Notes: a model not told the origin generated them from the letters alone. Counted from the stretch's first letter, positions 8,997 to 58,250 are shown. The stretch: DNA of 64,000 bases from Oscillospiraceae bacterium (GCA_015067305.1 SVMT01000001.1:28749-92748); one strand, 5' to 3'. Translations and numbers: made by a program.

Positions 8997-9020
8997 CTAT
9001 ATTTCCTCCTATGTGCTTTA

Positions 9021-9135
9021 CACAATGCAAAATGCAAAACGCAGGATGCGTAATGCAAAATTCAGAATGCATAATGCAAAATGAAAGCGTATTTTATCTT
9101 AATAAATGCATAATGCAAAATGCAAGATGCAAAAC
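9021..9135. repeat. TGCA heptad arrays in the gyrB 5' region
   Basis: TGCAAAA TGCAAAA CGCAGGA TGCGTAA TGCAAAA TTCAGAA TGCATAA TGCAAAA, then a second block at 9105-9135. Period is 7 nt. Confidence 0.85.
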
Positions 9136-9243
9136 TATAACATATTTTTATCTTACAAAAAAATATAAAAATTTATTATTTGTTAAATAAATGGAAAACT
9201 GTAAAAAATGCGGCAGAGATTAGTAGTTACAAATCATAACCAA

Positions 9244-9264
9244 TTTTGCATTCTGCATCCTGCA
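9244..9264. repeat. TGCA heptad array (3 units, opposite sense to 9021-9135)
   Basis: TTTTGCA TTCTGCA TCCTGCA immediately 3' of the remB stop. Confidence 0.85.
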
Positions 9265-9268
9265 TTTT

Positions 9269-9520
9269 TTAAAACTTCATTTCTCTTTTAATAAGAGTTG
9301 ATGTGTTGTACTGCGTAACATAAACTGTCGTTTTGCCTTTTTCACTGCATACAACAAATGATCTTGGAAGATCGTAAGTGGTGTAAACCACCTTGTGAGA
9401 CTTTTGCGCCAATGAAAGATATTTGTTCGTGATCGGAGACACCGTAGTCGTCTCTATGTCAAATATCCCCAAAATATCCTTATCGTTTATAACGTAATTC
9501 GCACCTAAATGTAAGTACAT
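9269..9520 (-). CDS. remB: DUF370 protein, RemB/YaaB-like
   Basis: 83-aa ORF starting MYLHLGANYVINDKDILGIFD and ending STLIKR. It occupies the recF-gyrB position held by B. subtilis yaaB/remB. Confidence 0.75.
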   Translation of the reverse strand: MYLHLGANYVINDKDILGIFDIETTTVSPITNKYLSLAQKSHKVVYTTYDLPRSFVVCSEKGKTTVYVTQYNTSTLIKREMKF

Positions 9521-9548
9521 GATTTATCTCCATTAAGTGTGAGTTTCT

Positions 9549-9607
9549 CGGAAAAACCATTTTTTGTAAAAATAGATTTTACCGAACCTTTTCCAAAAAA
9601 CTTTTAG
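9549..9607. repeat. R1 REP-like hairpin element
   Basis: CGGAAAAACCATTTTTTGTAAAAATAGATTTTACCGAACCTTTTCCAAAAAAACTTTTAG. Confidence 0.85.
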
Positions 9608-9672
9608 ACCGGATTCCTACTAAATTTTTATTTAAAAAATTAGTTATAATCAAATTATTTATTCTTTTGTCA

Positions 9673-9701
9673 TTGACAAACTAAAAAATATATTATATAA
9701 T
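9673..9701 (+). promoter_or_regulatory. consensus sigma-A promoter of the small-peptide (toxin-like) transcript
   Basis: TTGACA 9673-9678, exact 17-nt spacer, TATAAT 9696-9701. Confidence 0.75.
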
Positions 9702-9794
9702 ATTTCCGGAGTTACCAAACGGGTGCGGTCACTTTCTCTGTGTAGAGGAAGTTGAAATCTTTTTACCTTCCTCTGAAACGAGGGAGGTGATACT

Positions 9795-9893
9795 ATGGAA
9801 TACATAACATTAAGTGAACTCATAGAGTTTTGCACTATGATCTTTACCATTGTCAGTATTGTCTATATCATATCTAACGATAAAAAAAGATAA
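9795..9893 (+). CDS. 32-aa hydrophobic peptide, candidate type I toxin (holin-like small toxin type)
   Basis: GAGGGAGG lies 6 nt upstream of the ATG. Translation is MEYITLSELIEFCTMIFTIVSIVYIISNDKKR: one predicted TM helix and a basic tail. It is below the ORF-track size cut-off. Confidence 0.55.
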   Translation: MEYITLSELIEFCTMIFTIVSIVYIISNDKKR

Positions 9894-9968
9894 CCGCCTA
9901 CACGTCCAAAGTTTGCGGTTATCATAAGCAAATATGAGGAAGTGACCGTTACCGGTAACTCCTTTTCT
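9882..9968 (-). ncRNA. ~87-nt convergent antisense RNA, candidate type I antitoxin
   Basis: Runs from the consensus promoter at 9975-10003 to hairpin GATAACCGC/GCGGTTATC (9923-9889), followed by T7 on the minus strand. It overlaps the last 12 nt of the peptide ORF and its 3' UTR. A paralog lies at 36392-36478. Confidence 0.55.
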
Positions 9969-9974
9969 GTTTAT

Positions 9975-10003
9975 ATTATAACATAATATTTTTGCTTTGT
10001 CAA
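9975..10003 (-). promoter_or_regulatory. consensus sigma-A promoter of the antisense RNA
   Basis: Minus strand reads TTGACA (10003-9998), 17-nt spacer, TATAAT (9980-9975). Confidence 0.75.
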
Positions 10004-10111
10004 CAGCCAAAAAGGAATTTTCTATTAATTCCAGGCTGTTTTTATTTTTGCAAAAACAGACCGCAAATATAATATTTAATTTTTAACTAAAGCCTTAGTA
10101 TCAAGTAAAAC

Positions 10112-10146
10112 CTAATACCTAACACCTAAAACCTATAACCTAACAC
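10112..10146. repeat. heptad array, CCTAA sense on plus strand (5 units)
   Basis: CTAATAC CTAACAC CTAAAAC CTATAAC CTAACAC, abutting the recF stop codon. It reads as UAG-N4 repeats in the recF 3' UTR. Confidence 0.9.
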
Positions 10147-11211
10147 TTACTTGATTATTTTTCCGTTTTCAACTCTCATGACCTTATCCCCGACCCCATC
10201 GGGAACATCGCAGGAAGTAATAATTACCTGCTTGCCCTTGATACGGTTAGTTATGAAATCTTTTCTCTGTTCGTCCAGCTCGGAAAGCACATCATCGAAA
10301 AGCAAAAGAGGATATTCTCCGTGAGCTTCTTCGATCATATCAGCCTCAGCCAATTTCAGACAAAGAACTATTGACCGTTGCTGACCCTGGGACGCAAAAC
10401 GTCTTGAGCTATTACCGTTTATAAAAAGATCAAAGTCGTCCTTATGTGCTCCTATCTGTGAGTAACCTGAATGTATCTCTTCACTTTTCAGCTTACAGAT
10501 TTTTTCAAAAAGCTCGTATTCGTCATTGGTCTCGCCACTGACCGTATATTCAGCCGTCAGAGTTTCAGTATCTCCTGAAATTTCCGCAAGATATTTCAGC
10601 GCATTTCCCGTGAGTTTTTCACAATATGTCCGCCTCGTATTACTTATTATTGAAGAAAGTTTTGCCTGACGGGCGTTCCATATTTCAAGAGTATCAATAT
10701 TTGCACCGTCTGCATTTTTCAACAGATGGTTTTTTTGCGCCAATACACGGTTATATTCGGATAAAACTTCATAATATCTCGGTTTTATCTGACTTATGGA
10801 CATATCAAGAAATTTTCTCCGCACATCGGGACCGCTTTTTATAAGGGAGAGCTGTTCGGGGAAAAACAAAACAGCAGGAAATTTACCCAGCATTTCGCCT
10901 TGTTTGACTTTGATCCCATTTATGTGTATCTGCTTTGTTTTTGTATCAAAAAACCGAAGCTCTGCCTCATAATCACGTCCGTTTCTTGAAAAAACTCCTG
11001 TTACAGAAGCTGAATCACAGCCGTTGCGGATAAATTCCTTTTCATTCGGGGTCCTGAAACTACGACCTGACGTAAAAAGCCACACAGATTCCATTAAATT
11101 AGTCTTTCCTTGGGCATTTTTACCGGAAATTATATTAGAACCCTCACAAAACTCTACTTTTTCCGAAGTAAAATTTCTGTAATCGCGAAGTGCGATGGAT
11201 TTAAGGATCAT
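10147..11211 (-). CDS. recF: DNA replication and repair protein RecF
   Basis: 354-aa ORF with Walker A GKNAQGKTNLMES and signature SQGQQRS...LLLFDDV. It overlaps the dnaN stop. Confidence 0.93.
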   Translation of the reverse strand: MILKSIALRDYRNFTSEKVEFCEGSNIISGKNAQGKTNLMESVWLFTSGRSFRTPNEKEFIRNGCDSASVTGVFSRNGRDYEAELRFFDTKTKQIHINGIKVKQGEMLGKFPAVLFFPEQLSLIKSGPDVRRKFLDMSISQIKPRYYEVLSEYNRVLAQKNHLLKNADGANIDTLEIWNARQAKLSSIISNTRRTYCEKLTGNALKYLAEISGDTETLTAEYTVSGETNDEYELFEKICKLKSEEIHSGYSQIGAHKDDFDLFINGNSSRRFASQGQQRSIVLCLKLAEADMIEEAHGEYPLLLFDDVLSELDEQRKDFITNRIKGKQVIITSCDVPDGVGDKVMRVENGKIIK

Positions 11212-11213
11212 TT

Positions 11214-12344
11214 TTATCTGTTGTCGTTAAGACGCATGGGTGAAACGAGGAAAACGTATCCGTCACCATTTACGGGAAGAACGCAAAGTGAAGAAAGTGC
11301 GGAATTGAAATTCAACGTAACCTCTTCATCCTCGCAAGCGGAAATTGTTTCAATAAGAATTCTGTTATTGAAACCTATCTCAAGAGGCATACCGTCTGTT
11401 TTGACCTTCATTTCATCTATAAAGCTCTGACCCTGTTCATTTTTGCAAGAAACAATGATCTTTTCTTCTTCAATGGAAAGTCTGATGGGAGTTTTGAGCT
11501 TGCCGTTATCGATGATAATAACAGATGCTCTTTCGATGAGTCTGCGGAAATCCGCGGGCTTGACTTTGACTGTGGTCTTGAATTCCTTGGGAAGGAAACC
11601 TTTATAGTTAAGAAACTGACCGTCAAGAAGTCTGGAGATTATCTTGCATTTATCCGTTTCAAAAACGATATGTTTGGAAGAAAGGCAAAGTCTGACTTCA
11701 TCATCTGTGTCATCAAGGATCTTGATAATTTCGTTAAGAAATTTACCGGGAACGATAAATGAGAATGGATCGCCGTCTCTTTCATAGGGTTCGACCCTGC
11801 GTGCCATTTTCATTCTGTTTGTACATGTAACTGAAACATGATTATCTTCAAATTCAAAGTAAGCACCTGTCAGAGTACCGATGGGGTCTGCGATAGCCAC
11901 AGCGTAGAGTGTCTGACGGAGCATCTTTTTCAGCGTATTGCATGAGAAAGTGAAAGATTTTTCGGAGATGACTGCAGGAAGATTTGGGAAGAGGTTTGCT
12001 TCAGTACATCTGAGAGTAAAATTTGTGGAACCGCCGCTAATGCTGAGATTAAGTCCCGAAGTTTCTATACATGAGATCTCAGGCTCGTCGATGCTTCTCA
12101 CTATTTCAGTGAAAGTCTTGGCGTTGACAACGAGGCTGCCGGGTTTGATTACCGTACAGGGAATATTTATTTCGATACCTGCTTCAGTGTCGAAGCTGGT
12201 GATCTTAGCATTACCCTGACCTTCTATCTCTTTTATCTCAAGAAGGAAACCCTCAAGAGCTGCGATCGGTGTCTTTTGCGGAACGAATTTAGCCGCAGCT
12301 CCGCAAGCGTCGAGGAGAATCCCTCTGTCACAAATGAAATTCAT
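11214..12344 (-). CDS. dnaN: DNA polymerase III beta sliding clamp
   Basis: The ORF track extends to 12506. I place the start at ATG 12344 (AAGGAG upstream), giving MNFICDRGILLDA... (376 aa). Three-domain clamp length; position between dnaA and recF. Confidence 0.92.
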   Translation of the reverse strand: MNFICDRGILLDACGAAAKFVPQKTPIAALEGFLLEIKEIEGQGNAKITSFDTEAGIEINIPCTVIKPGSLVVNAKTFTEIVRSIDEPEISCIETSGLNLSISGGSTNFTLRCTEANLFPNLPAVISEKSFTFSCNTLKKMLRQTLYAVAIADPIGTLTGAYFEFEDNHVSVTCTNRMKMARRVEPYERDGDPFSFIVPGKFLNEIIKILDDTDDEVRLCLSSKHIVFETDKCKIISRLLDGQFLNYKGFLPKEFKTTVKVKPADFRRLIERASVIIIDNGKLKTPIRLSIEEEKIIVSCKNEQGQSFIDEMKVKTDGMPLEIGFNNRILIETISACEDEEVTLNFNSALSSLCVLPVNGDGYVFLVSPMRLNDNR

Positions 12345-12470
12345 AATTTGTCTCCTTTTATTTATTGGTGTGTTAGGTGTTCCCAAACCCTTTCCAAAAA
12401 AACTTTTAGACTTGGGTTCAAAAATATCTCTATTCTTACTCTGAAAATATTTAGAATTACTAAATCTCAA

Positions 12471-12500
12471 TCCTGCACTCTGCATTTTGCATCCTGCATT
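12471..12500. repeat. TGCA heptad array upstream of dnaN
   Basis: TCCTGCA CTCTGCA TTTTGCA TCCTGCA. The 26-mer 12475-12500 is identical to 18138-18163. Confidence 0.85.
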
Positions 12501-12554
12501 ATACAAATTGTATGTATAATAAAATTTAGTAGTAATAGTAGGCCCTGTGCAAAT

Positions 12555-12677
12555 TGTGGAAAACTCAAATTATTCCCATAGCTTCAATATTTTTCCGCAT
12601 TTTTGAAATTTGAAACCTCTCTCAAATTCCTTGGATAAAAATTGGAAAACTTTTTTCCTGTGGATAAATGTGGAAAC
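12555..12677. promoter_or_regulatory. DnaA-box cluster (oriC-type, dnaN-proximal)
   Basis: TGTGGATAA 12659-12667 is the perfect complement of TTATCCACA. Also TGTGGAAAA 12555-12563, TGTGGAAAC 12669-12677, CTTGGATAA 12630-12638 and TTTTCCGCA 12592-12600. AT-rich DNA follows. Confidence 0.7.
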
Positions 12678-12746
12678 CTGTGTTTGAAACTGTTTATAAG
12701 TCCCTGTTTATATTGTTAATTTGTGTTGATGATTTTGGGGAAATCT

Positions 12747-12806
12747 TGGAAAAACCATTTTTTGTAAAAATAGGTTTTTCCAAACCTTTTCCAAAAAAAC
12801 TTTTAG
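12747..12806. repeat. R1 REP-like hairpin element
   Basis: TGGAAAAACCATTTTTTGTAAAAATAGGTTTTTCCAAACCTTTTCCAAAAAAACTTTTAG. Confidence 0.85.
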
Positions 12807-13019
12807 CGAGCATAGCTCAGAATGATAATTAAAAATATGATAAGCTACCGCTAATAGTGTATCTATTTTTTCCTTTTGGGATATGTAACGAATGTTACGT
12901 ATCCCTCTTGCTTTTCTTTTTGATGGGGTCTTTGATGGGGTCTGGGGAAACTTTTTCTAAAGTATGCAGAGCATATTTGTTCACCCGAAAAGAAAAAGTT
13001 TCCTCAGGAATTCTTGATA

Positions 13020-14759
13020 CTATTTAAGTACCGCCAGTCCGCCAACGGGTATATTGATAGATACAATTTCGTTCTGTGCGTTCACAAGACCCTGTTCTCC
13101 GACTTTTTCGCCGCAGCAATTCAATATTTCAATATTATAGCTGCCCGTGAGTTCACAAACGACTCTGTCGCTTGTTGTGCCGTTTACGATGTAAGCTGTT
13201 TTTCTTGTTTCAGGTCTGATTATCTTATCTTCAGCATAAACAACAGCGATACTTTCGTTTCCTTTTACAGATTCTGCCCATGTATAGTTGAGATGCATAT
13301 CGTATGCTCTCAGATCACCCTCAAGAAGCAGATCTTTCTTTTCTTTCATGAAATTGAGCCAGAATTTGCTCATTTTCTTTGTTCTGTCGTTAAGTGAATC
13401 CAATCTTGCAGAATACTGCATAACAGCAAAAAGTATACCGATTATCTGCAATGCGTCTTTTTCAGCGGACTCGTCCTTATGCCACATAAGCATATCCGAA
13501 TGTACTGCGCTGTTACCCATGAGCATTCTCAGGTCAAGGGAACACATGCGGTTTTCGATATAATCGCAGGGGCAGTCACCGACTCTGAACATATTACCGA
13601 ATCTTCTCATATGGGGACCGATGTAGCTCTGTCTGAATTCAATGAGAATATCGGGTTTAATTTCTCTCAGAGATGTAATAACGCTTGTCATGAATACATC
13701 CACAGCATCCTGCAGGGACGGAATATCCATTTTTTCGTTATAAGGAGCATTTTCGTCGGAATCCCACCATGAGTCGATAAAGTCAAGCTTGAATCCGTCA
13801 AGATCCCATTCTGTAAGCGCTTTCTTATATTTCTCAATAAGGTAGTCTCTTACTTCTTTATATCTTGGGTCAAGTACAAATTCATTTGCTCTGTGGTTTT
13901 GTCTCAGGAACATATCCTTAAAAATATCATAACTCTTTGAGAAACGTCCTACAAAAGGAACGCTGTACCAAAGAATATATTTCATTCCTATGTCGTGTAC
14001 ACGTTTGACGTGAGCTGCCATATCGGGGAATTTTTCGGGACAGGGTTCCCAGTCTCCGCAATAAGCATAGCCTCTTCCGTTGTCGGAAGTCTGCCAGCCG
14101 TCGTCAACGATACAAACATCAAAGCCCAGATCTTTAGCTCTCTTACATTCTTCTTCGACATTTTTTTCGTTTACGCCCTGATGGAATGAGTACCAGAAAG
14201 AATAACAGGGTTCTTTTGCCGCAGCCGGAACGTAAGTGGGAGTGATTCCCAGGCTTTCCCACCACTGAGATACTGCTTTCAGAGCCTCATAAGTGGGAAT
14301 TTCTCTCATATCAAGTCTTATGGTGATCTCTGTTTCGTATTTGTTTGTGAACTGCTGAGTTCCCATGGAAACTTTAAACTGAAGGTTTCCGTTTTCTTCA
14401 ACTATACCGTTTCTGATTCTTGTAAGCATTTTCGCTTCGGAAAGCGCCATTGTGCATTTGTTTACGCCCTGACCGTCATAGTATGAATGAACGGGTGAGC
14501 CGTTTGAGATCATATGGCTTACAGGTCCGCACCAGTCGGGGTCGATATAATGTGCTGTTCTGCATTTGGGCTGCCAGCCGTACATTATGCCTGTAAGAGG
14601 AAGGTTCCATTCAAAAACGAATTCATCGTTATTTTTCGCATTTTCTTTTGTCCATGTCAGTTTAAAGGTATATTCTTTTATACCGTTTTCATCTTTTTTA
14701 TTTATAAGAGCCGCATTTTGTCCCTCTTGGAACTTTATATCAAAAAATTCAATATTCAT
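13020..14759 (-). CDS. GH36/GH27-clan (alpha-galactosidase-like) glycoside hydrolase, paralog b
   Basis: 579-aa ORF with CIVDDGWQ, GDWEP...KFPD and FKLDFID (melibiase-type TIM-barrel motifs). Strong RBS GGAGG. Confidence 0.65.
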   Translation of the reverse strand: MNIEFFDIKFQEGQNAALINKKDENGIKEYTFKLTWTKENAKNNDEFVFEWNLPLTGIMYGWQPKCRTAHYIDPDWCGPVSHMISNGSPVHSYYDGQGVNKCTMALSEAKMLTRIRNGIVEENGNLQFKVSMGTQQFTNKYETEITIRLDMREIPTYEALKAVSQWWESLGITPTYVPAAAKEPCYSFWYSFHQGVNEKNVEEECKRAKDLGFDVCIVDDGWQTSDNGRGYAYCGDWEPCPEKFPDMAAHVKRVHDIGMKYILWYSVPFVGRFSKSYDIFKDMFLRQNHRANEFVLDPRYKEVRDYLIEKYKKALTEWDLDGFKLDFIDSWWDSDENAPYNEKMDIPSLQDAVDVFMTSVITSLREIKPDILIEFRQSYIGPHMRRFGNMFRVGDCPCDYIENRMCSLDLRMLMGNSAVHSDMLMWHKDESAEKDALQIIGILFAVMQYSARLDSLNDRTKKMSKFWLNFMKEKKDLLLEGDLRAYDMHLNYTWAESVKGNESIAVVYAEDKIIRPETRKTAYIVNGTTSDRVVCELTGSYNIEILNCCGEKVGEQGLVNAQNEIVSINIPVGGLAVLK

Positions 14760-14781
14760 ATATGTTTCCTCCGTAAAAAGG

Positions 14782-14857
14782 TTTTAGGTTACAGGTGTTA
14801 GGTATTAGTTTCTGGGTTTTAGGTTACAAGTAATAAGTATTCACTAACACCTATAAC
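14782..14857. repeat. inverted heptad arrays between the GH36-like paralogs
   Basis: TTTTAGG TTACAGG TGTTAGG TATTAGT TTCTGGG TTTTAGG TTACAAG TAATAAG, then CTAACAC CTATAAC in the opposite sense. Confidence 0.85.
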
Positions 14858-14867
14858 CTACTGAAGC

Positions 14868-16616
14868 TTACAGCTTCAGTATCGCCAGTCCCCCGACAGG
14901 TACATAAATCTTTATGATTTCATTTTCAGCATTTTTAACTGTCTGTTCTCCGACCTTTTCGCCGCAGCAATCAAAAATCTCAATATTATAACTACCGTTC
15001 AATTCACAGAGAACTCTGTCACATGTTGTTCCGTTAGCTATATAAGTAGTTTTTCTTGTTTCGGGCTTTATACATTTATCAACTGCATAAACAGCAGAAA
15101 AAGCCTCATCGCCTTTTATGGATTCTGCCCATGTGTATGTCAGATTGGGTTCATATGTTCTGAGCTCACCCTCAAGGAGAAGATCTTTCTTTTCCTTCAT
15201 AAAGTCGAGCCAGAATTTACTCATTTTCTTCGTTCTGTCATTGAGCGAATCCAATTTAGAGGAATACTGCATAACGCCGAAAATTATGCCGATTATCTGC
15301 AAAGCATTTTGTTCTGCGCTTTCATCCTTATGCCACATGAGCATATCGGAATGTACCGCACTCTTGCCCATAAGCATTCTCAGGTCAAGAAGTGCCATAC
15401 GGTTTTCTATATAGTCACATGGACAGTCGCTTACACGGAACATATTACCGAATTTTCTCATATGGGGACCGATATAATTCTGTCTGAATTCAATAAGTAT
15501 ATCGGATTTTATTTCTTTCAGCGCCTTGATTATATTTGTCATGAACACATCAACTGCGTCCTGCAAAGAGGGGATATCCATTTTTTCGTTATAAGGTGCA
15601 TTATCGGGACGGTCTTCCCAGTTGTCTATGAAATCAAGCTTGAATCCGTCAAGATCCCATTCTTTAAGTGCTTTGACGCATTTATTTGTGAGATGTTCCC
15701 TTACTTCTTTATATCTTGGGTCAAGAATAAATTCTTTTCCGTTGTGATTATCTCTCTGTCTCAGAGTCATGTCTTTAAATATCTCATAACTCTTGGAGTA
15801 ATATCCCAAGAACGGAGTACCGTACCAAAGAATATATTTCATGCCGATGTCATGTACACGTTTTACGTGAGCTGCCATATCGGAAAATTTATCAGGGCTG
15901 GGATCCCAGTCTCCGCAATAGGCATAGCCGTATTTATTTCTTTCATTCTGCCAGCCATCATCAACGATACAAACATTGAATCCCAACTCTTTTGCACGTT
16001 TACATTCTTCTTCAACGTCTTTTTCGTTTATATCCTGGTGATGAGAATACCAGAAAGAATAACAAGGCTCTTTAGCCGCCGCGGGAACAAAAGCAGGTTC
16101 CATACCAAGACTTACCCACCATTCGGTAACAGAATTTACCGCTTCATATACGGGAATGCTTCTTTCGTCGATCCTTACTGTTATTTCCGTTTCATATTTT
16201 TTCGTATATTGCTGTGTACCGAGGGAAAATTTCAGTTGGAGATCTCCGTTACTTTCATTCACTCCGTTTTGAATGCTTGTCAGCATTTTAGCTTCGGAAA
16301 GAGCAACGGTATATTTATTTTTTCCATGACCGTCATAATATGTACCCATAGGCGCACCGTTGGAAAACATATGGTTTACAGCACCGTCCCAACTGCGGAG
16401 GATATCACGGCGCATACTGCATTTAGGATTCCAACCGTACATCATTCCGATAAGGGGTGTACTCCAACAGAAAACAAATTTATCGTTGTTTTCAGCATTT
16501 TTCTCTGTCCATGTCAGCCTGAAAGTATATTCTGTAATTCCGTTTTCGGCTTTTTTATCTATAAGAACCACATTTTGTCCGTCTTTTACGGTAATATTAA
16601 AAATTTCTATGTTCAT
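14868..16616 (-). CDS. GH36/GH27-clan (alpha-galactosidase-like) glycoside hydrolase, paralog a
   Basis: Alignable along its full length with 13020-14759. About two-thirds identical over the first 66 residues by hand count. Start set at ATG 16616 (MNIEIFNI..., matching the paralog); the ORF track extends to 16637. Confidence 0.65.
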   Translation of the reverse strand: MNIEIFNITVKDGQNVVLIDKKAENGITEYTFRLTWTEKNAENNDKFVFCWSTPLIGMMYGWNPKCSMRRDILRSWDGAVNHMFSNGAPMGTYYDGHGKNKYTVALSEAKMLTSIQNGVNESNGDLQLKFSLGTQQYTKKYETEITVRIDERSIPVYEAVNSVTEWWVSLGMEPAFVPAAAKEPCYSFWYSHHQDINEKDVEEECKRAKELGFNVCIVDDGWQNERNKYGYAYCGDWDPSPDKFSDMAAHVKRVHDIGMKYILWYGTPFLGYYSKSYEIFKDMTLRQRDNHNGKEFILDPRYKEVREHLTNKCVKALKEWDLDGFKLDFIDNWEDRPDNAPYNEKMDIPSLQDAVDVFMTNIIKALKEIKSDILIEFRQNYIGPHMRKFGNMFRVSDCPCDYIENRMALLDLRMLMGKSAVHSDMLMWHKDESAEQNALQIIGIIFGVMQYSSKLDSLNDRTKKMSKFWLDFMKEKKDLLLEGELRTYEPNLTYTWAESIKGDEAFSAVYAVDKCIKPETRKTTYIANGTTCDRVLCELNGSYNIEIFDCCGEKVGEQTVKNAENEIIKIYVPVGGLAILKL

Positions 16617-16648
16617 GTATGATTCTTCACTCTGCATTTTGCATTAAT

Positions 16649-18001
16649 TTAGTGTTCTTTTACATTCTTGATTATCTGCTGAACTCTGTCCTTGAATACA
16701 GGATTTGTTGCGAGTTTCTGTTCGATCTTCTTAATGGAATGGTGAACGGTGGAGTGATCTTTACCGTTGAATTCCTGACCGATCTCAGGTAGAGACATAT
16801 CTGTAATATCACGCATGATATACATTGCGATCTGTCTTGCAAATGCTACGGATTCAATACGTTTGTTACCCTTGATCTCGTCTGCGGGAACATCAAATTC
16901 ACGGCTTACTTCCACGATGATCTTGTCGATTATTACGGGAAGAGGTTCGTTTTCGTTGACGATATCCCTGATAGCACTCTGCGCAATGGCAATAGAAGGA
17001 GGCATATTTGAAACAAGCTGGAACGCCATGATCTTTGTGATAACGCCTTCAAGCTGTCTGATATTGTTTTTGATCTTCATTGCCACGAAGTCGATAACAT
17101 CGTTGGGTAATGTGATACCGTAAGTCTGCGCTTTCATTTTTATGATCGCAACTTTCAGTTCGTATTCGGGCATATAAATATCCGTAATGATACCCGATTC
17201 AAAACGTGAACGTAAACGTGATTCAAGCAGGGGAATATCCTTCGGAGGACGGTCCGATGCAAGGATTATCTGTTTGTTATCCTCGTAAAGAGCGTTGAAA
17301 GTGTGGAAAAATTCATCCTGAGTTGAATCTTTACCTGCAATAAACTGAATATCATCCACAAGAAGAACATCAACGGTCCTGTATTTGTTTTTGAATTCAG
17401 TCATGTTCTTGTTCTGGAGGTGGTCGATTAGGTCATTTGTAAATTCTTCGCCCTTGATATATAGAACCTTGTAAGAGGGGAAATTTTTATGTACTTCCGT
17501 GCTGATAGCTTTCAGTAAGTGAGTTTTACCGAGACCTGTATTACCGTAAATGAAAAGAGGGTTGTAAGAACGTGCTGGACTTCTTGCAACGGAAAGGCAC
17601 GCCGCATGAGCATGTTTGTTGGATTCGCCCACGATGAAGTTATCGAAAGTATATTCTGACGGTTTCTGCTCCACCATGTTGTTCATGTTATCCTCAACAT
17701 GAGTTTGGATATTTGAAGCCTTCGATTTTGGTATTTCCTGCTTGTCCTCAGAAGAGAGAACGCTTATATCCACATCAAAACCGACCATTTCCGAAAGAGT
17801 ATCTTTCAGAATACCTCTGTATTTTGACATAATGATATCCTTATGGAAAGGTGAATGAACGGCTAGCACAAAACAGTTATCCTCGTAACGAATGGGCGTA
17901 ATTGTTCTGATCCAAAGATTCATTGCCGTACCGCTTATCTGCCCGTCAAGTTTGTCTACAGCCATCTGCCAGATGGAATTAAGTGATTGCACTAAAAACA
18001 C
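16649..18001 (-). CDS. dnaA: chromosomal replication initiator DnaA
   Basis: 450-aa ORF with AAA+ motif GNTGLGKTHLLKAI and C-terminal DNA-binding GQEFNGKDHSTVHHSIKKIE. The likely true start is GTG 17992 (AAAGGAAG 8 nt upstream). Confidence 0.95.
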   Translation of the reverse strand: MFLVQSLNSIWQMAVDKLDGQISGTAMNLWIRTITPIRYEDNCFVLAVHSPFHKDIIMSKYRGILKDTLSEMVGFDVDISVLSSEDKQEIPKSKASNIQTHVEDNMNNMVEQKPSEYTFDNFIVGESNKHAHAACLSVARSPARSYNPLFIYGNTGLGKTHLLKAISTEVHKNFPSYKVLYIKGEEFTNDLIDHLQNKNMTEFKNKYRTVDVLLVDDIQFIAGKDSTQDEFFHTFNALYEDNKQIILASDRPPKDIPLLESRLRSRFESGIITDIYMPEYELKVAIIKMKAQTYGITLPNDVIDFVAMKIKNNIRQLEGVITKIMAFQLVSNMPPSIAIAQSAIRDIVNENEPLPVIIDKIIVEVSREFDVPADEIKGNKRIESVAFARQIAMYIMRDITDMSLPEIGQEFNGKDHSTVHHSIKKIEQKLATNPVFKDRVQQIIKNVKEH

Positions 18002-18133
18002 TTCCTTTCTTAATAATGCAAAGTGTAAAAAAATGTACTATGCCTAAACCCTATTAAACCTTAATAAAAAATACTCAAAAGCTACCGCAATTTCCTTTTT
18101 GCGTTAGCCATGTAAAATATATTAAACTTACAA

Positions 18134-18163
18134 TTCCGCACTCTGCATTTTGCATCCTGCATT
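18134..18163. repeat. TGCA heptad array upstream of dnaA
   Basis: TTCCGCA CTCTGCA TTTTGCA TCCTGCA. Shares a 26-mer with 12475-12500 and a 17-mer with 16628-16644. Confidence 0.85.
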
Positions 18164-18188
18164 TTTATAAGTATATAACCACTTATAT

Positions 18189-18217
18189 ATTATAGCACAA
18201 AACATCAAAATAATCAA
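18189..18217 (-). promoter_or_regulatory. candidate dnaA promoter (extended -10)
   Basis: Minus strand reads TTGATT, 17 nt, TATAAT with TGTGC immediately upstream of the -10. Confidence 0.5.
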
Positions 18218-18268
18218 TACAAAATCTCTAACTTCTGCGAGATTTAAGAAAAAATTCCTATTCGGTAC

Positions 18269-18297
18269 TTGACATTTGAGGGTATTTTAGATATAAT
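18269..18297 (+). promoter_or_regulatory. rpmH promoter
   Basis: TTGACA 18269-18274, 17-nt spacer, TATAAT 18292-18297. Confidence 0.7.
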
Positions 18298-18340
18298 AAA
18301 AAAAGAGCGCACTTACAAACGCATAAGGAGGTTTATTTCG

Positions 18341-18475
18341 ATGGTCAGAACATATCAGCCCAAAAAGAGACAGAGAAGCAAAGTTCACGGCTTCCGTAAG
18401 AGAATGAAGACAGCTAACGGAAGAAAGGTTTTGGCGAGAAGACGCGCAAGAGGCAGAAAGCAGCTTTCTCTCTAA
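18341..18475 (+). CDS. rpmH: 50S ribosomal protein L34
   Basis: [44 protein letters not shown] with AAGGAGG upstream. The ORF-track start at 18269 is an upstream extension. Confidence 0.95.
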
Positions 18476-18610
18476 TCTCTAACCCCTCGGAACAAGGAAT
18501 TATTAAAAAAATTATTACGGCAGGCGTTGACTTTTTAAGAAAAGGAGTCAACTCTGTCGTATGTTCCATGGATCCGATTTTAAAAAATTAACTAACCGAG
18601 TAATGCTGTT

Positions 18611-18979
18611 ATGAAGAATACGGAAACTATTACCGAAAACAAAATATTCACCAGACTCTACGGTAAGGGTAGAACTGCTGTAAGCGGCTCCGCAGTCGTA
18701 TATTACAGACAGAACAACCTGCACAAAAACCGTCTGGGACTCACAAGCACGAAAAAAATAGGGTGCGCTGTAAAAAGAAATCGTGCAAGGAGAGTCATCA
18801 GGGAGGCTTACAGGCTTCTGGAGGACAGACTTAAGGTGGGGTATGATATCGTTATCGTCGCCCGCACAAAAGCCACATCGGTGACCATGTTCGCGGTGAA
18901 AAGCGATCTTGAACGAGCTTTCAGGACTGCAGGACTTATTAGAGTTTCCGAAAACGACAGTACTGACACTGCGGAGTAA
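18611..18979 (+). CDS. rnpA: ribonuclease P protein component
   Basis: 122-aa basic ORF with [27 protein letters not shown] (RNR motif). Position after rpmH. Confidence 0.9.
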
Positions 18980-18995
18980 TCCGTCCGCTGTTAAA

Positions 18996-19253
18996 ATGCA
19001 GAAGATATTTGTTAAAATAATCGAGTTCTACAGGAAACACATATCACCGTACAAGCCTCCATGCTGCAGGTTTGTTCCGACATGTTCGGAATATGCGCTG
19101 CAAGCTCTTGAAAAGCACGGTCTTTTCAAAGGACTGTTATTGTCTGCATGGAGGATATTACGCTGCAATCCCCTGAGTAAGGGAGGTTACGACCCCGTTC
19201 CGGAAAAGAGTGTCAATTTACTCAAAAGCAGAAAAATGAACGGGAAAAAATAA
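18996..19253 (+). CDS. yidD: membrane protein insertion efficiency factor YidD
   Basis: From ATG 18996: ...[31 protein letters not shown]...[17 protein letters not shown]. Confidence 0.9.
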
Positions 19254-19285
19254 ATTGTACTGAATAAGGAGAGTATTTCGGCGAG

Positions 19286-20338
19286 ATGGGAAACTTAATG
19301 GACATCATCAATGTACCACTTGCGCTGTTGCTGAAGCTGTGCTATATGCTCGTTAACAATTACGGCGTAGCAATCATTCTGTTCGCAGTCCTTACAAAAG
19401 TTCTCCTTTTCCCTCTTGGTATCAAAGGTGAAAAGAGCAGACTACAGCAGGTTGCAATGCAGCCGAAGGTAAACGCACTTCAGCAAAAATTCAAAGGAAA
19501 TACACGTGACCCCAAGTATAACGAGGAACTTCAGGCTCTCTATAATGCAGAAGGATTCAGCCCCTTCGCAGGCTGCCTTCCTCAGCTGATCCAGCTTCCT
19601 ATTATCCTCGGTCTTTGGAATGCTATCAGACAGCCGCTTACATACATCAGCGGTCTGGGTCAGAAAACCCTCTACACCGTAGTTCATACCCTTTATGATA
19701 ACGGTGTTGCGAACATCGTTACGGAACTTGAAAAATATGCCGTAGACGGTGTCCTCGATCCCGATAAAGTCGTTTCTTGGCTTAAATCAAGCGAGATCAG
19801 ACTTGCGACTATCATCGGCGAAGGTTCCAATATGGAACTCCTTTCCGGAGTGCTTCCGGAAGATTTTGAGCTTCTCAATATGAGCTTTTTCGGTCTGAAT
19901 CTGGGCATGAAACCTTCCGATTACGGCTTGCTTGCCCTCACAACACTTATCCCCATTCTTTCAGGTGTTACATCTTTCCTCGGCAGTTTCATTATCCAGA
20001 AGATCAACGGAACTTCCGATAATTCTCAGAACGGTTCTATGAACATGCTTCTTTACACCATGCCTCTTATCTCTATCTGGTTGGGTTATTCCTTCCCCAT
20101 AGGTGTCGGCATTTACTGGATCGCATCCAACCTTCTCAATATGCTCCAGTCTTTAGTTCTCAAGCTTGTTGTGAAACCTGCCGAAAAGGAAGTTAAAAAG
20201 AAAAAAGAAAAGAAGCTTAATTATACTCAAATTGAAAAAATGAAACGCGAGGGAACTTGGACTGACGCCATCGAAGTGTCTGCGGAAGATCAGACAGAAG
20301 TAAAGTCCAAGAGATCCGATAAAAAATCTGGAAAATAA
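19286..20338 (+). CDS. yidC: membrane protein insertase YidC/SpoIIIJ family
   Basis: 350-aa multi-TM ORF in the conserved rnpA-yidD-yidC-jag context, with a lysine-rich C-tail. Confidence 0.88.
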   Translation: MGNLMDIINVPLALLLKLCYMLVNNYGVAIILFAVLTKVLLFPLGIKGEKSRLQQVAMQPKVNALQQKFKGNTRDPKYNEELQALYNAEGFSPFAGCLPQLIQLPIILGLWNAIRQPLTYISGLGQKTLYTVVHTLYDNGVANIVTELEKYAVDGVLDPDKVVSWLKSSEIRLATIIGEGSNMELLSGVLPEDFELLNMSFFGLNLGMKPSDYGLLALTTLIPILSGVTSFLGSFIIQKINGTSDNSQNGSMNMLLYTMPLISIWLGYSFPIGVGIYWIASNLLNMLQSLVLKLVVKPAEKEVKKKKEKKLNYTQIEKMKREGTWTDAIEVSAEDQTEVKSKRSDKKSGK

Positions 20339-56586: not shown

Positions 56587-56617
56587 AAATTCTGCACGGT
56601 TGTAAGGTTTTTCAACG

Positions 56618-56774
56618 TTTTCCACAAAATTATCAACTGGCCTTTGAAATGGCTGTGGAAAAGTCTGTGGATAGAGTGGAAAACCCTGTTTAAAACGTGG
56701 AAAAGCTTGATTTTATAAGGTTTTTTGCTGTGGAAAGCTTCCTGAAAACGGTATTTTCGGGAGAGTTTTCCACA
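56618..56774. promoter_or_regulatory. dense DnaA-box cluster (7 boxes in 157 bp)
   Basis: Three boxes match TTTTCCACA or its complement (56618, 56654, 56766), each 1 mismatch from TTATCCACA. TGTGGATAG at 56666 also has 1 mismatch. AGTGGAAAA (56675), CGTGGAAAA (56696) and TGTGGAAAG (56729) have 2 mismatches each. Confidence 0.7.
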
Positions 56775-56810
56775 GGTGTGCCGCTAAAATTTGAAAAAGG
56801 AAATTGGAAA

Positions 56811-58250
56811 ATGAAATTATCAGAAATCGTATCTTACCTTTCCCAAAAGGGACTTGTTGTTGAAAACCCCTGTAGTGATGTGGAAATTGCACATATCAGC
56901 TGTGATTCCAGAGATGTGAAGGCTAATACTCTCTTTTTCGTTAAGGGGGTGGCGTTCAAGCCCGAATATCTTCTTTCCGCTGTGGAAAACGGCGCTGTTG
57001 CCTATGTTTCAGAGTTCGACCTGGGCGTTGATATTCCTTTTGTGAAGGTCTCTGACGTGCGAAAAGCAATGCCTTACGGGGCTAAATTTTTCTATGGTGA
57101 TCCCGTTTCAAGGTACAAACTTGCGGCGGTGACAGGTACGAAAGGTAAAACAAGTCTTGTTTATATGCTCCGAAGCGTTTTTGAGGCGGCTTTCGGGGCT
57201 GAAAAGTACGGGTATATTTCCACAAACGGTGCGATGTGCGGAACTCAGCCGCTGAAAAAAAGCGGTACAACTCCCGAAGCGTTGGAACTTTACGGAATAT
57301 TGAATAAATTTGCCCTTGAAAATATTTCTGCGGCAGCGATGGAGGTCTCATCTCAGGCACTGAAATATGACCGTGTTGAGGGCATAAAATTCCACACAGG
57401 CGTTTTTTTGAACCTTTCCAACGACCACATCAGTCCCACGGAACACAGCAGTTTTGAGGACTACAAGGCGGCTAAGCTGAAACTGCTGGAAAACTGCCGT
57501 TTCGGTGCGGTGAATATTGACGACCCCAGCGGCGAGGAATTTTTCAAAGCCTCAAAATGCGAAAAAACATACACTTACGGAATCAAAAATGAGTGCGATT
57601 TCCGTGCGGAAAATATTATTCTCACAAAATACGGCTCGTCTTTCACGGTGAAAGGGGAAGAATTTACCCTGAAAATGCCGGGCGAATTCAACATTTACAA
57701 TGCATTGGCGGCGATAATCGTGTGCGAAACCATGGGCATAGGACTTGAATTCGTGAAAAAGGGGCTTGCGGAAGCCACCGCCGAGGGCAGAATGGAGATC
57801 TTTGAGAAAAACGGCGTGACCGTTTTGGTTGACTACGCCCACAATAAGCTGAGTTTTGAGGCTGTTTTTGATTTTGTGGATAAATTTTACCCCGACAGCA
57901 GGAAAATTTGTTTGTTTGGTTGCCAGGGCAACAAGGCTCTTGACCGCCGCAGGGAATTGCCCGAAGTTGCGGGAAACCGTGCCGACATGGTGGTGCTGAC
58001 CTCGGATGACCCTGCCAATGAGGAGCCCATGGCGATAATCGGCGAGGTTGAGGTGGAATTGCGCAAAACTCCTGTGAAATTTATCTCAATCGAGGACCGT
58101 GAAGAGGCTGTCGCTTATGCTGTCGGAAACGCCCAAAGCGGCGACGTGGTAATTCTGGCAGGCAAGGGGCAGGAGACCACCCAGCAGGTCCGCGGTAGGG
58201 CTGTCGCATACGTGGGCGATATGAAGAAGGCGAAGGAGATTTTGGGGTGA
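56811..58250 (+). CDS. murE: UDP-N-acetylmuramoyl-L-alanyl-D-glutamate--2,6-diaminopimelate ligase
   Basis: From ATG 56811: MKLSEIVSYL..., ISCDSRDVK, VTGTKGKTS and a C-terminal Mur ligase domain with DDPANEEP. The ORF track starts at 56697, inside the DnaA-box cluster. Confidence 0.92.
   Translation: MKLSEIVSYLSQKGLVVENPCSDVEIAHISCDSRDVKANTLFFVKGVAFKPEYLLSAVENGAVAYVSEFDLGVDIPFVKVSDVRKAMPYGAKFFYGDPVSRYKLAAVTGTKGKTSLVYMLRSVFEAAFGAEKYGYISTNGAMCGTQPLKKSGTTPEALELYGILNKFALENISAAAMEVSSQALKYDRVEGIKFHTGVFLNLSNDHISPTEHSSFEDYKAAKLKLLENCRFGAVNIDDPSGEEFFKASKCEKTYTYGIKNECDFRAENIILTKYGSSFTVKGEEFTLKMPGEFNIYNALAAIIVCETMGIGLEFVKKGLAEATAEGRMEIFEKNGVTVLVDYAHNKLSFEAVFDFVDKFYPDSRKICLFGCQGNKALDRRRELPEVAGNRADMVVLTSDDPANEEPMAIIGEVEVELRKTPVKFISIEDREEAVAYAVGNAQSGDVVILAGKGQETTQQVRGRAVAYVGDMKKAKEILG

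Follow-up and report, generated by a model that had tools for sequence, protein, structure and literature searches.

Background

The gene string rnpA-rpmH-dnaA-dnaN and a bipartite replication origin are treated as conserved throughout the Firmicutes (PMC7561715). In C. difficile both halves of the origin are needed for unwinding in vitro, and the dnaN-proximal half, oriC2, contains DnaA-trios of the sequence 5'-CACCTACTACTATTACTACTATGA-3' (PMC7561715). The succession of DnaA boxes, a GC cluster, DnaA-trios and AT-rich DNA is described as the basal unwinding system, BUS (Richardson et al. 2019, PMC6669920; Pelliciari et al. 2023, PMC10721633). Here, we analyse this locus in a stretch of 64,000 nucleotides from an Oscillospiraceae bacterium (GCA_015067305.1 SVMT01000001.1:28749-92748; "the window" in the following), in which two genes for proteins similar to glycoside hydrolases (GH) of family GH36, called GH1 and GH2 below, stand between dnaA and dnaN. 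Origin-prediction tools and annotation pipelines lean on the adjacency of dnaA and dnaN, and our literature searches gave no relevant account of a gene insertion between these two genes in Firmicutes.

As in the origins of B. subtilis (incC) and C. difficile (oriC2), here too a box cluster, DnaA-trios and an AT-rich element lie immediately upstream of dnaN, and the trios hardly differ in sequence from those of oriC2. Compared with the BUS, where two boxes here abut a short GC cluster that is followed by five trios of the CTA/TTA type and by AT-rich DNA, we see no architectural difference, as far as this can be known from sequence alone. On the other hand, the bipartite origins of Firmicutes have only dnaA between their two subregions, whereas here GH1 and GH2 also intervene, so that 3.6 kb of glycosidase genes part dnaA from the unwinding region; and while a cluster of the oriC2 type is present, there is no oriC1 box cluster upstream of dnaA.

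We consider it quite likely that the locus as a whole is to be read as follows: an accessory slot for GH genes lies at the 3' edge of dnaA, a one-part origin remains intact before dnaN, the content of the slot is driven by recombination, and dnaA and the GH genes form an operon. The arrangement is unusual for Firmicutes, and what is new in it is a variable gene slot inside the dnaA-origin-dnaN locus.

The replication origin

On the minus strand the order of elements is dnaA, a gap of 32 nt, GH1, GH2, a spacer of 675 nt, dnaN, recF and remB; on the plus strand rpmH, rnpA, yidD, yidC and jag diverge from dnaA, starting at 18.3 kb. An earlier reading of the window (the original prediction) had proposed the order dnaA, GH, GH, dnaN with a 32-nt gap and a cluster of DnaA boxes, and we find all of these at the positions it gave. 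It had also assumed that dnaN kept the boxes, the AT-rich DNA and the unwinding region beside it, and this agrees with the module that we find directly upstream of that gene.

The spacer between GH2 and dnaN (12345-13019) holds 12 DnaA boxes with at most two mismatches, and among the 256 bins of the window the one at 12501-12750 is the densest, with 9 boxes compared to a mean of about 1.1. A distal cluster on the minus strand (12564..12732) includes the perfect box TTATCCACA at 12659-12667 and the box GTTTCCACA at 12669-12677. It is followed by the unwinding module proper (12501..12563, minus strand), made up of boxes, GC, trios and an AT-rich stretch, which reads in 5' to 3' direction TTTTCCACA (12563-12555), ATTTGCACA (12554-12546), GGGC (12545-12542), five DnaA-trios CTACTATTACTACTA (CTA CTA TTA CTA CTA, 12541-12527), a stretch of 26 A/T nucleotides (12526-12501) and TATAAT. 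Runs of at least five such trios occur only twice in the 2.33-Mb assembly, and only for the run upstream of dnaN do boxes lead into the trios and AT-rich DNA follow. The same module of two boxes, GC, trios and AT-rich DNA is found in the same place in 12 relatives, which have no, one or two GH genes.

The divergent spacer between rpmH and dnaA (18002..18340, 339 nt) contains the dnaA promoter and a block of TGCA heptads, and neither a DnaA box at up to two mismatches nor a run of DnaA-trios. In the corresponding spacers of eight relatives we find between zero and two weak boxes. Since these relatives include G007 and G010, in which dnaA and dnaN are adjacent (labels G and L denote the genomes and contigs of relatives that we compared, G000 being the source genome), the lack of boxes appears to predate the insertion. 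Without a box cluster upstream of dnaA there is no visible second half of the origin from which the first could have been separated. The claim that the insertion moves two origin halves 3.6 kb apart is thus not supported for this locus. If the origin were nonetheless bipartite as in B. subtilis or C. difficile, the insertion would spread its halves by 3.6 kb and alter DnaA looping and the control of initiation. In favour of such an origin, bipartite origins looped by DnaA are the described norm in Firmicutes, the C. difficile origin needs both halves in vitro (PMC7561715, PMC6669920), and the rpmH-dnaA spacer has an A+T content of 71%; given the scarcity of boxes in nine spacers, ours included, we nevertheless find this improbable. 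On the predicted sites, the origin of the genus instead looks effectively one-part, with all recognisable boxes, trios and the AT-rich element directly upstream of dnaN.

One could also ask whether the functional origin lies elsewhere in the window, either at the minimum of the GC skew or at a second dense cluster of boxes, in which case the boxes before dnaN would only regulate dnaN. The second cluster (56587-56812) has eight boxes with at most two mismatches in 226 bp, four of them with at most one, and is as dense as the one next to dnaN. It is situated 38 kb from dnaA, between a gene of the cytidine/dCMP-deaminase family and a Mur-ligase gene, but we find in it neither a run of DnaA-trios nor an AT-rich element. 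The calculation of a cumulative GC skew, suggested with the original prediction, gave a divided answer for the contig: the skew has the shape of a V around the dnaA/dnaN region, but its cumulative minimum is broad and falls at 29-39 kb of the window. As the gene content to the right of jag, including the stretch of the minimum, differs between relatives, the skew is weak and unreliable evidence there. The coding strand, on the other hand, switches at 18 kb, and what the 12 relatives have conserved is the trio module before dnaN. An origin elsewhere therefore seems very improbable to us, and the second cluster may, by analogy with the DnaA-box clusters (DBCs) of B. subtilis, be one that titrates DnaA or has a regulatory role. 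The start of replication is probably left unchanged by the arrangement.

Occurrence in related genomes

The group that carries the arrangement is a sublineage of an uncultured Oscillospiraceae-like genus of Clostridia from herbivore guts. Three relatives whose DnaA is 90-92% identical (G003, G004 and G011) have one GH gene directly after dnaA, intact in G004. In a fourth, G006 (DnaA 90% identical), the site is empty: dnaA is followed after 468 nt by dnaN, and the boxes begin 25 nt past the dnaA stop. Our sample for the distance between the two genes comprised 41 genomes of relatives from the same order. The 33 of them that lie outside the GH-bearing subclade and have dnaA and dnaN on one contig show a gap of merely 13-863 nt, which bears out that the usual adjacency is broken here. 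The remaining members of the genus have their nearest GH homologue (52% identical) at a different place. As judged from these sequence comparisons, a GH36-like gene is shown to have entered the stretch from the dnaA stop to the DnaA-box cluster and then to have been inherited in place.

The source genome is a metagenome-assembled genome (MAG) of 63 contigs with a completeness of 84.7%, and such an assembly might by mistake have joined GH genes to dnaA and dnaN. The contig in question (C31 in G000, the window being its part 28749-92748) is, however, 167 kb long, and there is no N in the window. The order dnaA-GH-dnaN, with one or two GH genes, recurs in at least 12 further assemblies, which stem from various projects and assemblers. 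The metagenome or MAG contigs that show it (L021-L024, L028-L031, L034, L035, L042 and L044) come from JGI, ENA, Logan and NCBI, and three of these assemblies (L031, L034 and L035) have two copies as well. Moreover, exact matches of 185, 175 and 55 nt cross three of the four junctions of G000 in other assemblies, the one of 185 nt crossing the dnaA-GH1 junction in the independent assembly L035. Because the order recurs, three of the junctions are matched exactly and exact runs common to GH1 and GH2 do not exceed 30 nt, these sequence data would exclude misassembly for practical purposes, and we give it next to no credence. The arrangement is real and heritable; it characterises a species cluster and is not a singular event in this genome. 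It had also been considered, with the original prediction, that close relatives might commonly share the arrangement and have their origin mapped elsewhere; the species cluster does share it, and the second part finds no support.

In the dnaA tree G006 is nested within the GH-bearing group; the tree of dnaA, dnaN and recF taken together does not settle its position.

There are other breaks between the two genes in two further families of the same order of bacteria. In G029 (G029:C20:1-3200) dnaA is followed by a gene of the tyrosine-recombinase / phage-integrase family and in G035 (G035:C17:1-3400) by rplM-rpsI, in both cases with dnaN on another contig. These resemble the insertion of a mobile element or a rearrangement, whereas in our locus a metabolic gene abuts dnaA and dnaN follows within 2.3-4.3 kb. 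The other side of the origin also varies: genes for pyruvate formate-lyase abut jag in L028 and L029 (compare 20-28 kb of the window), and in L031 and L042 a gene for a GH78 rhamnosidase abuts mnmE. Rearrangements close to the origin are frequent in this group.

The variable gene slot

GH1 (16616-14868, minus strand, 582 aa) occupies the position next to dnaA, and GH2 (14759-13020, minus strand, 579 aa) is what we call the resident copy, which the species cluster has in common. The two proteins are 73% identical, and the longest exact run that their genes have in common is 30 nt. In a tree of 44 members of the family, the genes at this locus fall into a group of 18 members with three clades. 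The resident clade (12 members, Shimodaira-Hasegawa-like approximate likelihood ratio test, SH-aLRT, 98) comprises the genes adjacent to dnaN and most of the single GH genes. It includes GH2, whose near-identical partners in the tree are the copies in L034 and L035; it is 97% identical to the second copy of L034, and its identity with the lone GH genes in G003 and G004 is 79-83%. The genes in the dnaA-proximal slot fall into two clades, both separate from the resident one. GH1 groups with P0010 and P0019, of which P0019 lies, in other genera, at a locus linked to GH78, and the first gene of L031 belongs to the same clade (89% identical). The other clade unites the first genes of L034 and L035 with P0012, the lone GH gene in L042.

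The contrast between the slot and its surroundings can be seen in the genomes G000, L034 and L035. Their nucleotide identity is 98-100% over rpmH, dnaA, GH2, dnaN and recF and 60-83% in the slot; likewise, the number of synonymous substitutions per site (dS) is 0.07-0.2 for dnaA, dnaN and recF and 1.2-2.4 for the slot genes. The dS between GH2 and the second copy of L034 is 0.17, and that between GH1 and GH2 is 1.71. A recent tandem duplication of GH2 was rejected as the source of GH1, as the two genes belong to different well-supported clades and differ by this dS of 1.71. Of the proposal that GH1 and GH2 are two paralogous genes, the common family (73% identity) was confirmed, but they are not recent local duplicates of each other.

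The slot has sharp edges. Behind the dnaA stop, G004 has ATTAATGCAAAATGCAGA and next a hairpin of TAGGT heptads, and in G000 GH1 lies precisely between these blocks. At their ends, the slot genes are mosaics in which sequence like that of GH1 and like that of GH2 is combined: approximately the first 75 nt of the first gene of L035 are as in GH1, and the first gene of L034 has a start like GH2 and an end like GH1. We also looked for signs of a mobile element as the origin of the insert and rejected it, as there is no recombinase and no target duplication, and the insert holds nothing other than GH genes; in its flanks we were not able to find any direct repeats beyond dispersed heptads.

In summary, the position next to dnaA is variable between strains: it is empty in most species and holds non-orthologous members of the family in others, including strains of this species that are near-identical otherwise. 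On these sequence patterns, the variation is most likely due to recombination, either homologous or facilitated by homology, with the DNA of related lineages. Diverged members of the family would be repeatedly imported or exchanged at the slot, and the resident copy as well as the heptad repeats may aid this process.

Alternatively, the slot genes, GH1 and GH2 could all descend from an old tandem array whose copies were lost differentially, with no lateral import. All three clades of the 18-member group do include genes at the dnaA locus, L034 has a duplicated module of hairpin, ribosome-binding site (RBS) and gene, and mosaic ends are what one would expect from gene conversion within an array. 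However, with a dS of 0.07-0.2 in the flanks and of 1.2-2.4 in the slot, an array of at least three copies would have had to persist until very recently. Furthermore, GH1 and its counterpart in L031 differ by a dS of 0.93, which is below the 1.70 of dnaA for the same pair of genomes, and the nearest other relative of GH1, P0019, is at a GH78-linked locus elsewhere. We thus regard descent from an array as unlikely and prefer recombination with related lineages.

The GH1 and GH2 proteins

Both proteins match the Pfam family Melibiase (PF02065) above its gathering score of 27 bits, GH1 with 41.8 and GH2 with 46.3 bits; these are weak matches, and the one on GH2 is partial (residues 192-337). The best sequence matches in the PDB are likewise partial alignments, to GH36 alpha-galactosidases, with E-values between 1e-12 and 1e-7. 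An AlphaFold model of GH1, built with 42 homologues, has a predicted local distance difference test (pLDDT) score of 92.3 and a predicted template modelling (pTM) score of 0.90. When this model was searched with Foldseek, the top 23 hits were GH36 chains (E-values 1e-27 to 1e-24, template modelling (TM) scores 0.59-0.67), followed by GH31 enzymes. The leading hits are a galactosaminidase of Flavonifractor plautii (FpGalNase) and bacterial alpha-galactosidases, with TM scores of 0.60-0.67 and 12-15% identity.

According to the model, the fold of GH1 and GH2 is GH36-like, that is, a predicted beta-sandwich, a (beta/alpha)8 barrel and a second beta-sandwich. This three-domain fold is common to the enzymes of GH36 in clan GH-D, such as FpGalNase (9awt/8x1b), MelA of L. 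acidophilus (2xn0) and AgaA of G. stearothermophilus (4fnr). The predicted proteins differ from these enzymes in length (about 580 aa compared to 650-760 aa), with a much shorter N-terminal domain, and they are similar only to the extent of 12-15% identity, TM scores of 0.6-0.67 and a root-mean-square deviation of 6.6-9.6 A. A K-L-D motif, conserved in at least 90% of the sequences, aligns its aspartate (D328 in GH1, D326 in GH2) with that of the K-W-D motif in 2xn0 and 8k1a, which we take to be the catalytic nucleophile of GH36 enzymes. The candidate for the acid/base, D397 in FRVxDCP, is invariant in sequence.

Among the family genes that we compared, the pairwise dN/dS is 0.04-0.15 throughout (0.07 between GH1 and its L031 orthologue). 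Since all values are in this range, we take the GH genes to be working genes; by this measure, both are shown to be intact putative enzyme genes under purifying selection. The family is large, with around 4,300 homologues of about 580 aa in MAGs of Clostridia, where they are labelled 'alpha-galactosidase'. At other loci the homologues adjoin nagA/nagB and oxidoreductases of the GFO/IDH/MocA type, or a GH78 rhamnosidase gene.

Transcription of the GH genes

A consensus scan finds a promoter for dnaA (TTGATT-17-TATAAT with TG, 18217-18189). We used the scan for this strong promoter only, as its counts of promoters and terminators do not exceed those in shuffled sequence. The 32-nt spacer between dnaA and GH1 (16617..16648, minus strand) holds a remnant of the TGCA heptads of 17-23 nt (16622-16644) and the weak RBS GAAGAA. 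We find no terminator-like hairpin between the two genes (fold of -3.1 kcal/mol, z = 0), and no promoter-like site there exceeds what chance would give (19 found, 20.3 expected). The weak RBS and the absence of a visible promoter, both of which had been attributed to the first glycosidase gene beforehand, are thus borne out.

In most relatives the gap from the dnaA stop to the GH gene is 11-42 nt long; in G011 and L028 the RBS of the GH gene even sits directly on the dnaA stop (TAG-GAGGA). G004 and L034 instead have a spacer of 140 nt with a hairpin. Because gaps of 11-42 nt leave no room for a promoter outside dnaA and the scan is at chance level, an operon in which the dnaA promoter serves dnaA and one or two GH genes is most likely on the evidence of the sequence, and the GH genes would be co-transcribed with dnaA.

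A hairpin of TAGGT heptads also lies between GH1 and GH2 (14785..14860, minus strand; stem of 17 bp, loop of 42 nt, -25.7 kcal/mol, z = -2.7), followed by the strong GH2 RBS GGAGG (14768-14772). In G004 this module stands before the lone GH gene, and in L034 before each of the two. The hairpin of these two relatives has a loop of 42 nt and no U-tract directly after the stem, and it could be a terminator, a processing site or a stabiliser.

Other features of the locus

The dnaA gene (18001-16649, minus strand) encodes 450 aa and matches TIGR00362 with 498 bits as well as the Pfam domains Bac_DnaA, Bac_DnaA_C and DnaA_N. The likeliest start of GH1 is the ATG at 16616, which corresponds to the start in GH2 and in all homologues; an in-frame ATG further upstream (16637) has no RBS. 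For dnaN (12344-11214, minus strand, 376 aa, TIGR00663 with 216 bits) the true start is the ATG at 12344 after AGGAGA, the three DNA_pol3_beta domains beginning at residue 55 of a longer open reading frame (ORF). It is followed on the same strand by recF (11211-10147, TIGR00611 with 334 bits) and remB (9520-9269). A search of Rfam with the region 9000-19500 gave no match. For the long ORFs antisense to GH1, GH2 and the origin (437, 127 and 101 aa) Pfam gave no match either; we take them to be spurious.

The part of the spacer next to GH2 (12733..13019) is variable, being kept in L034, partial in L035 and missing from G003. It comprises a hairpin at 12942-13007, a terminator-like hairpin at 12878-12905 and a copy of a dispersed repeat at 12733-12806. 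The terminator-like hairpin has a stem of 12 bp that is followed by a run of T on the plus strand only, and it thus points against the genes on either side; it may end antisense transcripts that leave the origin or be left over from the inserted DNA. The dispersed repeat, AAAGTTTTTTTGGAAAGGGTTCGGGAAAACC with an adjoining hairpin, is present a second time in truncated form at 12374-12409 and has at least ten copies in the genome; a full copy is found just upstream of the dnaN RBS in G004 and G006. The dnaN leader (12345..12503, minus strand) contains, in this order, a TATAAT (12503-12498), a block of TGCA heptads (12498-12471), the truncated repeat (12409-12374) and the RBS AGGAGA (12356-12351).

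Blocks of TGCAnnn with a period of 7 nt lie just downstream of the TATAAT of both dnaA (18133-18160) and dnaN (12471-12498), and the copy after the dnaA stop (16622-16644) is shorter; about 15 loose copies are spread over the genome. The block could be a shared leader or operator element. Heptads of the form TAGGTnn and their complement make up an inverted array of approximately 400 nt in G004, between the GH gene and the DnaA boxes.

Discussion

The picture that emerges is that the insertion would place the dnaA gene at a distance from a one-part origin that itself stays whole, which may be why it has been tolerated. Several observations weigh against this picture or parts of it. A scan with a consensus box would miss weak or non-canonical DnaA sites upstream of dnaA. 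The broad minimum of the cumulative GC skew is at 29-39 kb, 17-27 kb to the right of dnaA, rather than at 12.5 kb. In the approximately unbiased (AU) test, an outgroup position of G006 is not rejected (p = 0.42), so that this genome may either never have had a GH gene or have lost it. In G004 and L034, the hairpin with a 17-bp stem that stands before the GH gene, after dnaA, could terminate or process the transcript. Finally, chimeras of strains in metagenome assemblies are a residual alternative source of the mosaic slot genes.

The geometry of the locus has a further consequence. With unwinding at about 12.5 kb, the fork that moves towards rpmH would meet dnaA, GH1 and GH2 head-on, over 5.5 kb, compared to around 1.35 kb with dnaA alone. 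As a tentative idea, in which we have somewhat less than even confidence, the site after dnaA might be a strain-variable cassette that is hard-wired to the transcription of dnaA, has maximal gene dosage, is exchanged by recombination and is the only accessory DNA met head-on by every fork that leaves the unwinding site. If this is true, an essential replication operon doubles as the carrier of a diversifying gene for carbohydrate use, and the head-on conflict of replication and transcription next to the origin might add to the recombination and turnover of the locus.

The locus thus suggests that an origin in Clostridia can do without a box cluster upstream of dnaA, and that dnaA can be several kb away from the unwinding module, parted from it by metabolic genes under selection. 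The natural variants with no, one or two GH genes offer material for testing whether the distance between dnaA and the origin, read-through into the origin or a longer head-on block affects initiation. At the same time, the locus points to a large, uncharacterised, short-form family of GH36-like proteins.

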